Below, piece by piece: positions 7,530-12,952 of a stretch of 59,943 nt of DNA. A model generated the notes under the pieces. It was not told the DNA's origin and ran no database searches. It saw nothing but the letters and a program-made list of their open reading frames with translations. The translations under genes were made by a program, and so were the position numbers. The DNA is from Bacteroidota bacterium (GTDB lineage Bacteria > Bacteroidota > Ignavibacteria > Kapaibacteriales > UBA961): positions 1 through 59,943 of the forward strand of contig JBEEPK010000008.1 in assembly GCA_041191145.1 (NCBI GenBank), written 5' to 3'. Each line of letters opens with the position of its first letter. Within the stretch, counting starts at the first letter, position 1.

Positions 7530-8519
7530 TTATCTACCACGGATAATCCAATACACCGCCATATTGTCTGGACGATTTTCATTGCCTGCAGTTGGAGTAA
7601 TACCACCAACGCTATTTCCAGGATCGCCGGTAGTAAAAGTATGAGAGTGATTTCCATCAGCACTTATAGAGTGTCTATGTGAACCTGAATTTTCTGCTGC
7701 TGTACCTGAAGTTCCACCATCATCTGAAGTTCTTTGATAACCACCATCACCGGTTTCGCCACCATGATCATGCAATCCATTTGTACTTGTCGTCCCACTA
7801 TGCGTATGTTTTCTCATCGATTCGCCTTGTTGGCTTCGCACACCTGTTGTGCTTTCACCACCGGTTCTTGTGCCTGCATCATCATCCCATCCTCTACCTT
7901 CATCCAAACCACGCAAGAAATTTCCACGAAGATCTGGAAGATTTGAGCTATTACCGAGGATATTTTTCAAGGCTGTTTTTTCATCAGCAGATAAAGCTGA
8001 CAAGTTGTCAATTAATCTACCATCGCATTTAAACCAGCCATTTGTTTCCATACCAGCAACATTACCACTATTTCCTAGATAAGCGATTACGGACCCAATT
8101 GGATAAGAATCTTCAGAGATTTTAGCTTGAACTTTATAATTATATCTGCTTTCAACAATAGAAGGATCAGTAAGATCTACAGAAAAATTACCACTTGTAG
8201 CATTATAATTAATGTCATTATTAATATTCTTATCAATTGTAACTACGGACACTACAGGATTTTCCAATCTTGTAACTATAAAACGCACTGTTTGATTATT
8301 TTTCGCATATGGTTCATACTTTGTTGTTGTTACAGCTTGACTTGGAATAGTACTAAGAACATTCCCATTACAATCTTTTACTTCGATTGGAGCTGTATTA
8401 GTGGTACTTGTAACCTCTTTGCTGAGAGTACCAGATGCAGAAATTGTACCCGCATTTATTGATAGATTGGGCATACCAATCAATAATGCCAGAGTTAATG
8501 TTAAAATTATGTGTTTCAT
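7530..8519 (-). CDS. Secreted protein with phage tail-collar domain and HxH fibre-tip motifs
   Basis: Signal peptide MKHIILTLTLALL...SINA; collar motifs PIGSVIAY, GWFKCDG, LPDLRGNFLRG; HTH/HDH/HRH/HSH; C-terminal ENRPDNMAVYWII. Confidence 0.8.
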   Translation of the reverse strand: MKHIILTLTLALLIGMPNLSINAGTISASGTLSKEVTSTTNTAPIEVKDCNGNVLSTIPSQAVTTTKYEPYAKNNQTVRFIVTRLENPVVSVVTIDKNINNDINYNATSGNFSVDLTDPSIVESRYNYKVQAKISEDSYPIGSVIAYLGNSGNVAGMETNGWFKCDGRLIDNLSALSADEKTALKNILGNSSNLPDLRGNFLRGLDEGRGWDDDAGTRTGGESTTGVRSQQGESMRKHTHSGTTSTNGLHDHGGETGDGGYQRTSDDGGTSGTAAENSGSHRHSISADGNHSHTFTTGDPGNSVGGITPTAGNENRPDNMAVYWIIRGR

Positions 8520-8557
8520 GATAATTCTATGATTAGTTGAAAAAGCCAAATGTCTCA

Positions 8558-11500
8558 TCAATTCTTTGGTTTGCTTGCTTGATCTTTCGTCTGTGCTTCC
8601 AAAGCACTTTTATTGAGCATGCGATTGATATTTTGAAGCATTAGCTCTCTATATTTTGGATCTCTTTCCATGCGTGAGTAGAATGGATCTGTTTCGGGAT
8701 CTCCACCTGCATCGATGAATTTCTGACGAGCTTCTAAATAGCCTCTTTCAACTTCTTGTTCAGGAATAATTTGTACATCCATTTGATTAGGTGTTTGTTG
8801 CTCAGAAGCAATACCATCTTGCCTTTCGAGACTTTTCAACTTTCTGGCACTCACAACTTTCGGCTGATCAAAATCTAATCCTTTGAAGAGTTCAATCAAT
8901 GTACCATTTGACTCCAAACCACGAACTTCTTTATAAGTGGGCATTACGGTGATAAGTGCATTATTGATATTCTTGACTTCTTCTTGCATCTTATCCATTT
9001 CTTTTTCGAGGATCACGATGTGATTTGTTTGCTCTTCAATTACTTGTGCTGTTGTCTTATGATTCATACCAACTGCAACATTGATCACATTGAATCCTGC
9101 AGGAGAATCACCTGCACTCCATGCAACACCAACAACTTTGCGATATTCATATGGTGACAAATCTTTTGGCTTGCGAGCAATACCTAAACCATTGTTTTTA
9201 CCACTTGGCAAGATATAATCACCCAATTCAACTTTACCAATTACGCGAACAGGAACTTGACCCATAAATGCCACTTTTTCATATTCTTTTTCTTTACCTA
9301 CTTCAGGAGTATTTCCAAGCACAATTGGCTTTGTGGAAATAACCATGCAATGATCTGCATTTGTTGTATTCTTGGAAATCTTACCATCTTTGATACCTAC
9401 AATATCTGAAGCAACGAAAGTTTCACCTGGCAAAGTTTTGGGTAACCATTCTGCATAGTCAGCTGCACCGGATTCATAAGTAACACCTTGAGAAGAATAG
9501 CGATTACATGCCCAGTCTGATTTGACTTTATTAGCATCCGCTACACCTTGATTTGCTTCTGTAAAATTCAAAGTGTATTGAACAACATCAAGTGCCATTC
9601 TGACAATAGTAGCAACTTTAGCAACAGCAACTGCAATACCAGTTCCACCCAATGCTGTACATGGAATGGAGAATAATCCCCATCCGCAAGCAAAGCGACC
9701 ACCAACATCGGCCCATGCAACACCTACTTCCACGGCTTCAGCAACAGTCTTAGCAATACCAATCAACAAGTCTCTATATGCTACTGTCTTCTCATCTTCG
9801 GCAAGAGCAACTATATGATTATATAATGCCAATTCCCTTTGATAACTATCGCTAGTTGACCATCCCGCAGATGTTGTTGTTGGATTGTCTTTTGAAGCTA
9901 GTGGTACAACTTGGCCTTCAATTCTACCAATTGTTTGACCTAAAGAATTTGTAAAGCGAACGAAGTCATTTGAATTGGTAGGAGCTGACTGACTTGATAA
10001 TTTGATATTTATACCATTACCTGATGCGCTTGTATTGGTAAATGTTGCTGTGAACTGATTTTCTGCTGATTGAGAAGCATCACCATCACCGGTGAAATAG
10101 AAACCTTCTGAATACTTTGCATGATATTCATTCGCAGGTGCATTTGCGCCATTACCAAGTGCCATGGCATTTGCTGCAGCGGTATTATTATAGCCAATTG
10201 CAACACCTTGTGTACCATTCACTGTGTTCGAATTACCAATTGCAACACCATATGTTGCCGAAACCTGATTGGATGCACCAAATGCAACACCATTTGCACC
10301 GCCTGTTCCAATTGTATTGCTCACTCCGGAAGCTGTTCCATAGTTTGCAGAAACAGTATTGTCTCTACCACCTGCAATTGTAGAATATTCAGCACTATTT
10401 GTTATGTCATTATTATTCCCACCACCAACTGTACCATAATTTCCGGTAATAGAATTAATCTCACCACCACCTATGAAACTTGTTGATCCACTGACGGTAT
10501 TATCATTACCGCCAACAATGGCTGAATAATCACCGGTTACACCATTGGACCATCCTCCAACGACTGTTACATAATCATCATTGGTGCTTGTGGAATTTGA
10601 TGAACCACCACCAATAAATGAATATGTTGAAGAGGAACGGATGATATTCCCAGAACCTCCTCCAATTGTGGAGTAATTAGCACTCGCATTAATGTTATTA
10701 TCGTTACCACCACCAACAACTGCATAATCTGCATCTGCAATATCATTTAAATATCCGCCGACGATAGCAGAACGAATACCATTATTTGCAATATTATTGT
10801 CGATACCACCAACAATAACAGACTGCCAAGCACTAGTACCAATATCATTTGATTCACCTGAGCCAATAAATGAAGCAGTTGAACTTGCTCCAATATTATT
10901 ATCATTACCACCACCAACAAAAGCCCAGTCTGCATCTGCGATATTATTAATGGTTCCACCGACGATGGCTGATTGAACACTACCATTTGCGATATCATTG
11001 TCATTACCGCCAACAACAACTGATTGAGTGGCATTATTTCCAATGCTATTGCTGTTACCTGAGCCAATAAATGCATGTGTAGATGTAGTACCAATCGCAT
11101 TACTTTGTCCAGTACCTACGAATGAATAATCGGATCCGCTACCAATAGCATTAGATCTACCACCAGTAATAGCCGCATAATCACTAGTAGTGATTGTTCC
11201 TGTAAAGCCACCACCAATAGTAGAGTAGTCAGAACTTGTAGTAATAGTATTATGAGTACCACCAGCAACAATGGAATTACTACTACTTGTGACAGCATTA
11301 TAAGCACCACCACCGATAATACTTCGATTAGAACTGGTAATAGTGTTTTTATTACCACCATTAATAACTGAATTTGTGCTGGTTGATGAACCTGAATGTG
11401 TGATTTGATTTGTATCACCACCTGCAATAATGCTTCGATTAGAATTCAATGAAATCGAATTCATTACACCGCCGCCGACAACAGAAAATTGCGAGAATAT

Positions 11501-12721
11501 TCTATTGTCCTGTCCAGCAGATATTGCAGAGTAATGTGCCAAATTATCTAGTTGATTATTTCTACCACCGGAAATTATTGAGTATTCTGAAAGCAGAGTA
11601 TTCTGTGAACCACCAGCTACCACACCATTCACTCCGCTGGATCTATTCCTATCTCCACCTCCAACAATCGAAAATGTTCCGGTCGCAACATTATTTTGTC
11701 CAAATCCAATTCCGGAATTTACACCGCTTGCTGAATTTAATGAACCGCCACTTACCACGGAAAACTGACCATTGGCAGTATTTGAAACACCACCAGCAAT
11801 AGTAGATCCGATACCACTGGAATTATTATTCTGACCTCCACCTGTTGTGGCAAGAGACTGCATTGACCTATTATTCTGACCTCCACCAACAGTTGCAGCT
11901 TGTCCACTTACAATGTTTGATTGACCGCCTCCAATTGTACCATGATTTGATCCAACTTGATTACCTTGGCCACCGGAGATTGTTCCATAGTTTGAGGAAG
12001 AATTTGCAGTATTACTTCTACCACCAGTGACTACCGACCAACTTCCTTGTGCTCTATTTTCTTGACCGCCACCAACAAATGTCCAAGAACCTTGTGAACT
12101 ATTCCCCTGTCCACCGGCTACAGTTCCGAAAGCACCACTTACAGAGTTGGTATAGCCACCTAAAATTGATGCATAATTGGCTGATGTTCTATTTTCATCA
12201 CCGCCGGCTATTACTGCACGCAAACCACTTACATAATTGGCTAGTGCTTTTTCGCTGCCTTTTTTATCTTCTGGGAAGATCTTCTCACGAACAATTGGAG
12301 ACAATTGTTCTACACCGATTGCTTCATTCTCAACAGCACCAGCCATGAAGGCATAAGCGGCTGATTGCAATGGAATGCGCATATTCTGTTTTTCGCCATT
12401 CACTGAGATATCAATGAAATATGGCTTATCGAACTTGACTGTGCGTGGAAGACCTGTCATTCCACCAAGTGAAAACTGATACAATCCTGTTTCACCAACA
12501 AGTACTGTATCAATTTGCTCATGCAATGGAAGACCACCGAGAGGAGATTCATAAATCCCAACACGGAACACTTGCTTCCCTTTCAATGGCGTTGAGCCAA
12601 AAGAGGAAGTCAATACGCCTTGAATACTCAATGTACGAGGTATGCTCGTTTGAGCAACAGTGATGTTTAATGCGGTGATTGAAGCAATCATCAGCATTAA
12701 AATGCGGTACACATTTGTCAT
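8558..12721 (-). CDS. Large secreted fibre/adhesin-like protein: GG-N repeats, YadA-like head repeats, peptidase G2/IMC-type chaperone, coiled coil
   Basis: Signal peptide from MTNVYRIL; roughly 40 S-x-I-x-GG-x-x-N repeats; GVAIG repeats; GAADYAEWL...GDYILPSG...VVGVAW; C-terminal coiled coil. Confidence 0.75.
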   Translation of the reverse strand: MTNVYRILMLMIASITALNITVAQTSIPRTLSIQGVLTSSFGSTPLKGKQVFRVGIYESPLGGLPLHEQIDTVLVGETGLYQFSLGGMTGLPRTVKFDKPYFIDISVNGEKQNMRIPLQSAAYAFMAGAVENEAIGVEQLSPIVREKIFPEDKKGSEKALANYVSGLRAVIAGGDENRTSANYASILGGYTNSVSGAFGTVAGGQGNSSQGSWTFVGGGQENRAQGSWSVVTGGRSNTANSSSNYGTISGGQGNQVGSNHGTIGGGQSNIVSGQAATVGGGQNNRSMQSLATTGGGQNNNSSGIGSTIAGGVSNTANGQFSVVSGGSLNSASGVNSGIGFGQNNVATGTFSIVGGGDRNRSSGVNGVVAGGSQNTLLSEYSIISGGRNNQLDNLAHYSAISAGQDNRIFSQFSVVGGGVMNSISLNSNRSIIAGGDTNQITHSGSSTSTNSVINGGNKNTITSSNRSIIGGGAYNAVTSSSNSIVAGGTHNTITTSSDYSTIGGGFTGTITTSDYAAITGGRSNAIGSGSDYSFVGTGQSNAIGTTSTHAFIGSGNSNSIGNNATQSVVVGGNDNDIANGSVQSAIVGGTINNIADADWAFVGGGNDNNIGASSTASFIGSGESNDIGTSAWQSVIVGGIDNNIANNGIRSAIVGGYLNDIADADYAVVGGGNDNNINASANYSTIGGGSGNIIRSSSTYSFIGGGSSNSTSTNDDYVTVVGGWSNGVTGDYSAIVGGNDNTVSGSTSFIGGGEINSITGNYGTVGGGNNNDITNSAEYSTIAGGRDNTVSANYGTASGVSNTIGTGGANGVAFGASNQVSATYGVAIGNSNTVNGTQGVAIGYNNTAAANAMALGNGANAPANEYHAKYSEGFYFTGDGDASQSAENQFTATFTNTSASGNGINIKLSSQSAPTNSNDFVRFTNSLGQTIGRIEGQVVPLASKDNPTTTSAGWSTSDSYQRELALYNHIVALAEDEKTVAYRDLLIGIAKTVAEAVEVGVAWADVGGRFACGWGLFSIPCTALGGTGIAVAVAKVATIVRMALDVVQYTLNFTEANQGVADANKVKSDWACNRYSSQGVTYESGAADYAEWLPKTLPGETFVASDIVGIKDGKISKNTTNADHCMVISTKPIVLGNTPEVGKEKEYEKVAFMGQVPVRVIGKVELGDYILPSGKNNGLGIARKPKDLSPYEYRKVVGVAWSAGDSPAGFNVINVAVGMNHKTTAQVIEEQTNHIVILEKEMDKMQEEVKNINNALITVMPTYKEVRGLESNGTLIELFKGLDFDQPKVVSARKLKSLERQDGIASEQQTPNQMDVQIIPEQEVERGYLEARQKFIDAGGDPETDPFYSRMERDPKYRELMLQNINRMLNKSALEAQTKDQASKPKN

Positions 12722-12952
12722 AATGTTCACCTGAATATGTATTGAATAAATATATTTTTTTACAATAAATAGATAGTAATTGGACAGAATTGTGGACAAT
12801 TATGCCAATTACGAAATGCAACCTAAGAAAATTACAGTAAAAACAAGGCCTATGTGGTACAATTACAGAAAAATAACATACTTTCTTGAAGAATGGGATG
12901 AAGCACATGGATAGCCTTCCACAAAAAGCATACCCTTTTCATGATTACCTTT

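Follow-up and report, generated by a model that had tools for sequence, protein, structure and literature searches.

The window analysed here is a stretch of 59,943 nucleotides from a Bacteroidota bacterium of the Ignavibacteria (contig JBEEPK010000008.1, assembly GCA_041191145.1). On its reverse strand, at 8558-12799, it carries an open reading frame (ORF) of 1413 amino acids from a TTG start, and there is strong support that the product is a Sec-exported trimeric beta-roll fibre protein that ends in a module of a helical hairpin and a chaperone of the Peptidase_G2 (G2) type. The hairpin, which is closed at its tip by two cysteines and is located directly upstream of a predicted self-cleavage site, is the subject of this analysis. 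A first-pass annotation of the sequence had interpreted it as a fusion-loop-like fibre tip that is unmasked by autocleavage. Our leading interpretation, which we hold tentatively, is instead that the hairpins are a structural, assembly or docking element of the mature fibre.

The domain that follows the motif DYAE could be assigned with solid support, at the level of the family, to the phi29 gp12-type (Peptidase_G2) autochaperones. It comprises residues 1114-1244 (9068-9460, reverse strand, as for all features of the fibre gene) and is predicted by AlphaFold2 (AF2) to be a beta domain with a predicted local distance difference test (pLDDT) value above 90. The C-terminal fragment of the query scores 17.7-20.9 bits against Peptidase_G2 (PF11962), which is below the cutoff of 25 bits; three of 18 full-length homologues score at least 25 bits, and 54 of 55 G2-domain segments of relatives match PF11962 at E ≤ 0.01 (best 4e-9). 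A profile of the G2 segments of the family (alignment A3) matches the phi29 gp12 fragment 3gqh with an E value of 4.7e-4. In this alignment the family sequence sgagDYAEWL lies on ntwSDFAEYF of gp12, and its Asp falls on gp12 D692, which follows S691 and is where the 3gqh fragment begins. A model of the C-terminal fragment (fragment residue n is protein residue n+893; mean pLDDT 71.9) was compared with known folds: in the VIA comparison model residues 221-351 match 3gqh 692-854 with Z 12.8 and a root mean square deviation of 2.6 Å (115 aligned residues, 22% identity). The match to the full-length pre-mature gp12, 3suc, has Z 12.7 and covers model residues 218-351 only, and Foldseek pairs the chaperone domain with 3suc and 3gqh with probability 1.0 and E of about 6e-4. 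The first-pass annotation had taken DYAE as the mark of a gp12-type chaperone, and both the profile and the fold matches bear this out.

Each of 120 sequences, of which one is the query and 119 are listed homologues, has exactly one DY[AS]E motif, as a rule 270-300 residues before the C-terminus, and DYAE is invariant in alignments A1 and A3. The conserved Asp and Glu of this D-x-x-E motif presumably have catalytic roles in Peptidase_G2. DYAE, starting with D1114, is encoded at 9449-9460 and, by analogy with gp12, the predicted scissile bond lies between A1113 and D1114, i.e., between bases 9461 and 9460; the gp12 cleavage site itself was taken from the chain numbering of 3gqh. The bond is preceded by the strand GVTYESGAA (together with DYAE at 9449-9493), in which D, Y, A and E are invariant and trimer contacts are predicted at fragment residues 210-222. 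The hairpin is located N-terminal to this predicted bond and outside the part to be released, as the first-pass annotation had assumed. If cleavage follows gp12, the mature fibre would end 11 residues past the second arm of the hairpin and would retain the hairpins.

A three-copy model of the fragment made with ESMFold2 gave an interface score (ipSAE) of 0.80, compared with 0.00 for the best of three controls; in the calibration of this score, 20 of 30 solved pairs and one of 23 single chains reach the mark. At least 57% of the contacts are shared between runs, and the partner pLDDT is at least 56. The confident contacts are at fragment residues 210-379, from the pre-cleavage strand through the G2 domain to the coiled coil behind it. 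The good score of the model may stem from the likeness to the solved gp12 trimer. The hairpin (fragment residues 85-209) is not among the confident contacts and its placement is without confidence.

Two further cysteines, C1098 (9506-9508) and C1151 (9347-9349), flank the predicted scissile bond, 16 residues before and 37 residues after it. They are found together only in three of 87 rows of A1 (the query, P0017 and P0018, which form the closest clade), and six other rows have the upstream Cys alone. If bonded, C1098 and C1151 would keep the cleaved chaperone tethered to the fibre.

The hairpin follows the last beta unit (residues ~927-962, 9914-10021), which is conserved, is modelled as strands with a pLDDT of about 57 and ends with G-R-I-E-G; R, I, E and G of this motif are invariant or nearly so in alignments A1 and A2. 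Translation of 9440-9850 reproduces the peptide quoted in the first-pass annotation, with the Cys loop followed by DYAE. Arm 1 (residues 984-1037, 9689-9850) is modelled as a helix (fragment residues 91-147) with a polar base, an apolar tip-side half and an acidic residue at each seventh position. It is followed by the tip loop C1038-GWGLFSIP-C1047 (9659-9688) and by arm 2 (residues 1048-1102, 9494-9658), again modelled as a helix (fragment residues 160-209). In the AF2 model, the helices span 984-1040 and 1053-1102 and are separated by a low-confidence loop at 1041-1052.

There is strong support that the hairpin is real and that it is an antiparallel coiled coil with its arms in register: two independent lines, the Cys pair and the co-variation of the arm lengths, agree with the AF2 model. 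The Cys pair at the tip is present in all 120 sequences. Its loop is 3-8 residues long in 116 of them, C-G-A-C in three and 15 residues long in one; C-x5-C is found in 54 sequences, C-x7-C in 35 and C-x8-C in 21. The commonest tip is C-[AV]-G-[LF]-G-x-C followed by x-T-A-P-I-P-S-L-I, and the clade of the query has C-x8-C. Cysteines are about 12 times denser here than elsewhere in these proteins (244 in 13200 residues of the hairpin region, 109 in 70826 upstream and 50 in 36742 downstream). When aligned with MAFFT, 101 of 104 sequences have Cys at the position of C1047 but 14 of 104 at that of C1038 (Ser in 82); the low count in the latter is an alignment effect of the varying loop length, since the pair itself is conserved. 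The arm lengths, measured from GRIEG to the first Cys and from the second Cys to DYAE, co-vary with a Spearman coefficient of 0.84 in 283 distinct sequences and fall into clusters of about 39/41, 46/50, 53/57, 60/64, 70/73, 76/78 and 82/85 residues, which are heptad steps.

A subfamily (P0214, P0231, P0232, P0250 and P0251) is Cys-free and has an acidic turn, GVDDFDAA, between charged, Trp-containing amphipathic arms that are still located upstream of DYAE. Conservation of the Cys pair, which the first-pass annotation had suggested as a check, holds for all 120 sequences examined but does not extend to this subfamily.

Polarity changes along the arms; the absolute numbers given here on the hydropathy, translocon and Eisenberg scales are approximate. 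In the main clade the base of the hairpin is 31-43% polar and the 28 residues nearest the tip in each arm are 13% polar, with Eisenberg mean hydrophobicities of 0.42 and 0.51 and a moment of about 0.2, which means that they are apolar all round. In the two groups with shorter arms, 1-8% of the residues in the heptad beside the Cys are polar. This apolarity is mostly due to small residues: Ala, Gly, Ser and Thr make up 43-51%, large aliphatic and aromatic residues 31-39%. An Ala stripe runs along arm 1 at columns 1021, 1028 and 1035 (Ala in 65-70 of 104 sequences), and heptad stripes of Asp, Glu, Asn or other polar residues are found at 1017, 1024 and 1031 and at 1071, 1078 and 1085. The best 19-residue window has a median summed translocon-scale free energy (dG) of +7.3 kcal/mol in arm 1 and +5.2 kcal/mol in arm 2, and a value below 0 is reached in one of 120 sequences for arm 1 and in none of 120 for arm 2. 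With positive dG values the segments should pass Sec and not become stuck in the inner membrane, as a secreted protein would require. The maxima of Kyte-Doolittle hydropathy over 19 residues (KD-19) have a median of 1.93 in the homologues. The apolar character described by the first-pass annotation is thus a conserved property of the tip-side halves in the family, but the protein in which it was noticed is less apolar than the norm: its hairpin is longer and more polar, and arm 1 is 20-25% polar throughout.

To determine the distribution of the module, profile A2, which covers the hairpin and the preceding beta unit, was searched against 1.84 billion representatives (clusters at 50% identity). 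Altogether, 527 protein clusters were found at E ≤ 1e-3. The 141 newly listed proteins include 120 with DYAE and a Cys pair, 13 with DYAE but without a C-x(2-17)-C pair and eight without DYAE, all of which break off within or just past the hairpin (fragments or frameshifts). Hairpin and chaperone form one unit, and the hairpin was never seen without the DYAE module save in these eight broken-off proteins. At least 565 stretches in species-representative genomes encode relatives; among the matches listed, these belong to Chitinophagaceae, Saprospiraceae, Flavobacteriales, Cytophagales, Bacteroidales, Rikenellaceae, Ignavibacteria, Kapaibacteria and metagenome-assembled genomes (MAGs) labelled Chlorobiota. 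Nearly all ORFs examined in the genome scan have two Cys at the tip. Those that do not are L039 with one Cys, L067 with none, L073 with no motif and two ORFs that are truncated by contig ends. The closest named relatives of the query come from MAGs labelled Kapaibacteria, Ignavibacteria or Bacteroidota. In its own genome the fibre gene is present as a single copy and no paralogues were found.

Viral sequences were searched as well. A scan of IMG/VR gave 12 pattern matches, none of which is a relative, and tblastn against 50,697 phage records gave no match at E ≤ 1e-3; neither search found the module in a phage. Among the viral structures of BFVD there are 25 matches at E ≤ 1e-3, and 19 of the top 20 span 135-146 alignment columns, close to the size of the G2 domain. 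Within the reach of these searches, the hairpin appears to be a lineage-specific insertion directly upstream of the scissile bond, and they detected no relative of it outside the fibre family. The ESM Atlas neighbours of the fibre are all labelled "hypothetical protein", and no paper on this bacterial family was found in search listings and abstracts. The fibre family is widespread and unannotated across Bacteroidota, Ignavibacteria and Kapaibacteria.

Our tentative model for the role of the hairpin starts from the homology to gp12. The chaperone would trimerise, nucleate folding of the fibre from the C-terminal end and then cut itself off between A1113 and D1114, which would leave three hairpins as the C-terminal end of the mature fibre. 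The Ala/Gly-rich tip halves of the disulfide-stapled hairpins would pack on one another or on an operon-encoded partner, and the resulting trimer of hairpins would cap and lock the mature fibre or join it to the next component and would not be a free membrane-penetrating device. Several observations argue for such a structural role. Heptad Ala and acidic stripes are typical of tightly packed helices; arms of about 39 to 82 residues show that there is no fixed constraint by membrane thickness; the Cys-free acidic-turn subfamily has ordinary charged amphipathic arms; the translocon-scale dG of the best 19-residue window is about +5 to +7 kcal/mol; and partner genes are conserved beside the fibre gene.

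Other features weigh against the structural role. The tip-side 28 residues in the main clade are apolar all round (13% polar, moment about 0.2), and a two-helix hairpin, or even a six-helix bundle on its outside, would have much of this surface exposed, for which lipid or an unknown partner is an equally natural counterpart. With its high charge, the coiled coil behind the G2 domain is unlikely to shield the hairpins in the precursor; packing of the hairpins around this coiled coil was considered and judged unlikely for the same reason. Shaft and chaperone trimer would occupy the three-fold axis on either side of the hairpin base, and on geometric grounds an on-axis six-helix bundle would be hard to fit into the precursor. 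Cleavage, the Cys-Cys disulfide and the cell-facing end of the fibre are all putative.

In another reading the hairpins act as a membrane foot or anchor: once the chaperone has left, three stapled tips would dip into or cross a lipid layer (perhaps the cell's own outer membrane or vesicles) and tether the fibre. We consider this unlikely. The fibre has no other recognisable anchor (no lipobox Cys, no sorting domain of the type IX secretion system (T9SS) and no YadA-type barrel; the Pfam and NCBIfam scans are blank for the C-terminus), and tip halves of about 28 residues with a low moment and KD-19 maxima at a median of 1.93 are more apolar than a solvent-exposed bundle would be expected to tolerate. 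The homologue P0099 carries the JGI label "F0F1-type ATP synthase membrane subunit c", which is probably a mis-annotation driven by the Ala/Gly-rich hairpin; presumably it reflects a composition like that of a membrane hairpin. A positive translocon dG might allow a segment to pass Sec and yet enter a membrane later, and a membrane role would fit with a post-G2 coiled coil that is too charged to shield the hairpins. However, both ends of the hairpin would be on one side of the membrane, and a hairpin that inserts from the periplasm would keep the long shaft in the periplasm as well. The Cys-closed tip and the absence of flanking basic residues fit badly with a hairpin in the inner membrane whose loop is cytoplasmic, and the positive dG indicates that the arms are not hydrophobic enough for a Sec stop-transfer. 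The conserved acidic stripes along arm 1, the approximately two-fold variation in arm length, the existence of the Cys-free acidic-turn subfamily and the more polar hairpin of the query (20-25% polar throughout arm 1) likewise speak against an anchor.

The hairpin could also serve mainly in folding, as a spacer or clamp that holds the three chains in register and offers the scissile strand to the active site of G2, and would then have no separate role once the fibre is mature. It was not seen without the G2 module, its arm lengths keep register, and its base joins the GRIEG strand to the pre-cleavage strand, the latter being, together with GRIEG residue 67 (fragment numbering), among the confident trimer contacts. 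Phage G2 proteins, however, fold and cleave without a hairpin (judged from the spans of the BFVD matches and the 3suc alignment, which covers 218-351 only), and a pure spacer requires neither a conserved Cys staple nor a tip that is apolar all round, so that we regard a folding device as improbable. A reading with insertion into a target membrane, as in the first-pass annotation, would make the hairpin a distal fusion-loop-like or pore-forming element and the protein a contact-dependent penetrating, toxic or fusogenic fibre. The hairpin is on the mature side of the predicted scissile bond, its Cys-bracketed Gly/aromatic/aliphatic loop is conserved and its Ala/Gly-rich composition recalls viral fusion peptides; phage fibres that end in an intramolecular chaperone have their C-terminus at the distal end. 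For the hairpin, the fold search gave generic matches to helical hairpins with Z 9-11, whereas caution is advised for helical folds below about 13. They include the TcdA1 channel and IpaB hairpins (Z ~9.4-9.7), but these are mixed with the unrelated YscO, FliJ and PI3K iSH2. The searches linked the hairpin by sequence to no fusion protein or pore-forming toxin; a likeness to the long helix of influenza HA2 (E ~0.1 in a PDB search with the A1 profile) is not significant, falls in the released C-terminal tail and was rejected as coiled-coil noise. The likeness of the hairpin to fusion loops, toxin hairpins and ATP-synthase subunit c is compositional and is not homology. Together with the Cys-free acidic subfamily and the conserved flanking families, among which no toxin- or immunity-like neighbour was found, this makes a target-directed device improbable: none of the tests supports an exposed tip, membrane insertion or a toxic or fusogenic activity, and the trimer model places the hairpin without confidence.

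A related scenario has the chaperone as a safety cap: G2 on the axis would keep the stapled apolar hairpins apart, and autocleavage would allow them to collapse into a trimer-of-hairpins spike that enters a membrane, be it that of a target cell or the producer's outer membrane. We give this little credence, in about the same measure as target-directed insertion; if true, the fibre would be a bacterial counterpart of the class I viral fusion machinery, which is likewise primed by proteolysis, and hundreds of lineages of Bacteroidota, Ignavibacteria and Kapaibacteria would have it. The structural, assembly or docking element remains our tentative preference.

The remainder of the protein is that of a secreted fibre. 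Translation probably starts at M27 (12721): the database copy (P0003) has 1387 amino acids and the ESM Atlas entry begins with residue 27. The N-terminal segment MTNVYRILMLMIASITALNITVAQ (residues 27-50, 12650-12721) is probably a Sec signal peptide, judged from its sequence and a hydropathy peak at residues 26-53, and has no lipobox Cys. The shaft (residues ~190-905, 10085-12232) is a Gly/Ser/Asn-rich, UspA1/YadA-head-like beta-roll with repeats of about 14-17 residues; in the PDB sequence search residues 220-508 match UspA1 3pr7 (E 2e-15) and residues 766-911 match UspA1 3ntn (E 8e-4). Between GRIEG and the hairpin the query has a 12-residue insertion, PLASKDNPTTTS (residues 966-977 plus flanks, 9857-9901). 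Eleven of its 12 columns are gapped in 103 of 104 aligned sequences and the last column in 100, a count that left out near-identical relatives, of which at least L002 carries a similar insertion.

The part to be released extends 170 residues beyond the gp12-like domain (residues 1247-1409, 8573-9061). It consists of a charged coiled coil (residues 1247-1306, 8882-9061; AF2 helices at fragment residues 354-413, confident inter-chain contacts at 351-379), a disordered linker and, at the C-terminus, a conserved helical domain (residues 1347-1409, 8573-8761) seen in the AF2 model. Neither coiled coil nor helical domain has a Pfam or NCBIfam match. Whole-protein scans with Pfam and NCBIfam gave nothing useful; they found neither a C-terminal T9SS sorting domain (Por_Secre_tail) nor a YadA_anchor-type beta-barrel, and in the AF2 model the last 300 residues are the G2 beta domain and helices.

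The genes flanking the fibre gene encode housekeeping proteins (EF-P-like, AccB/AccC-like, adenylosuccinate synthetase, SecDF, thiolase and DXP synthase), which indicates that the fibre gene is a chromosomal bacterial gene and not part of a prophage. Directly downstream, and overlapping the fibre stop by 4 nucleotides, is the gene for a secreted phage-tail-collar-like protein (7530-8561, reverse strand). This protein matches a PHROG tail collar fibre family with E 5.5e-18 and Pfam Collar with E 1.6e-4, the latter below the cutoff, and has His-rich H-x-H repeats near its C-terminus. In the query clade, 24 fibre ORFs in 23 loci, the window included, have a collar-like homologue as their immediate downstream neighbour, and this recurrent adjacency suggests that it is a likely partner of the fibre. 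The neighbour was seen with 18 C-x7/8-C tips, with one C-x3-C tip and with two ORFs without a detected Cys pair, and never with C-x5/6-C tips; this association is confounded by phylogeny.

Other lineages have other arrangements. In Chitinophagaceae, Saprospiraceae and similar loci the fibre genes often form tandem triplets. Triplets are found at L020, L024, L041, L047 and L070, where no copy lacks the hairpin or the DYAE module, a pattern that suggests an array of variable surface proteins. In relatives from Chitinophagaceae, Saprospiraceae and Flavobacteriales, a protein of about 170 amino acids with a T9SS sorting domain is encoded upstream and a PKD/fn3 T9SS protein of about 1700 amino acids downstream (for example L036:4074-4568, L036:7405-12495 and L028:7402-12699, with about 20 further loci). 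Short fibres of 645 amino acids in Bacteroidales/Rikenellaceae are preceded by a 218-amino-acid signal-peptide protein (L049:4492-5145) and followed by a 621-amino-acid Fib_succ_major/fn3 protein (L043:6935-8797). The 218-amino-acid protein has no Pfam or family match; our impression is that of a small barrel of the outer membrane.

Most of the known intramolecular chaperones that cleave themselves belong to tail spikes and fibres of phages. Here, such a chaperone is found in a large unannotated family of Sec-exported cellular fibres (527 clusters, at least 565 genome stretches). The chaperone is of the gp12/Peptidase_G2 kind and the shaft is like that of trimeric autotransporter adhesins. The chaperone is preceded by the Cys-stapled, apolar-tipped hairpin, which the phage proteins compared do not show in the aligned part. 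Since the fibres have no recognised anchor or secretion tag and are encoded in conserved operons with T9SS cargo or collar-like proteins, the hairpin is an obvious candidate for attachment, joining or arming. An understanding of its role would explain a common surface structure of environmental and gut Bacteroidota and could bring to light another mode of anchoring or triggering trimeric fibres.

Compared with known systems, the hairpin recalls viral disulfide-bracketed fusion loops and the hairpins of toxins (colicins, the diphtheria toxin T domain, the TcA channel) in its Cys-closed apolar loop of Gly, Ala and aromatic residues and its apolar-tipped helical arms. Unlike these, it has arms with conserved acidic stripes that are Ala-rich and not Leu/Ile-rich and that vary two-fold in length; there is no detectable homology, and the fibre lacks shielding amphipathic helices. 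For the P22 needle, the part of the published description available to us mentions no hairpin (PMC3741392). The shaft has its counterpart in the trimeric autotransporter adhesins YadA and UspA1, which are likewise secreted trimeric fibres with head-type Gly/Asn-rich beta-roll repeats (UspA1, E 2e-15), and one homologue of the fibre matches YadA_head; in contrast to these adhesins, the fibre has no C-terminal YadA-type beta-barrel but a G2-type chaperone and a hairpin in its place.

The Peptidase S74 chaperones are of the Ser-Lys type. Fold and motif of the fibre chaperone are those of G2, and Pfam S74 gave no match at E ≤ 10 for C-terminal fragments of 520 and 314 amino acids, although UniRef labels the homologue P0107 a Peptidase S74 domain protein. 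The logic of a C-terminal, self-cleaving, trimerising chaperone is nevertheless the same as in the S74/ICA proteins (endosialidase, T5 pb1, MYRF), in which the chaperone is reported to cut itself off a beta-helical fibre (PMC8326128). The closest known system is the D4 domain of the phi29 gp12 pre-neck appendage (MEROPS G2, PF11962; 3gqh, 3suc). The query remains below the Pfam cutoff for this family, and gp12 is a virion protein, whereas the fibre is cellular, Sec-exported and chromosomal. The fibre has in addition a stapled hairpin of about 120 residues before the scissile bond, of which the 3suc alignment stops short, and 170 residues of coiled coil and helical tail past G2. Common to both are the fold after the motif, with S/DFAE in gp12 and A/DYAE in the fibre (the slash marks the scissile bond, predicted for the latter), and the position of the chaperone at the C-terminal end of a beta fibre that is trimeric in gp12 and predicted to be trimeric here.

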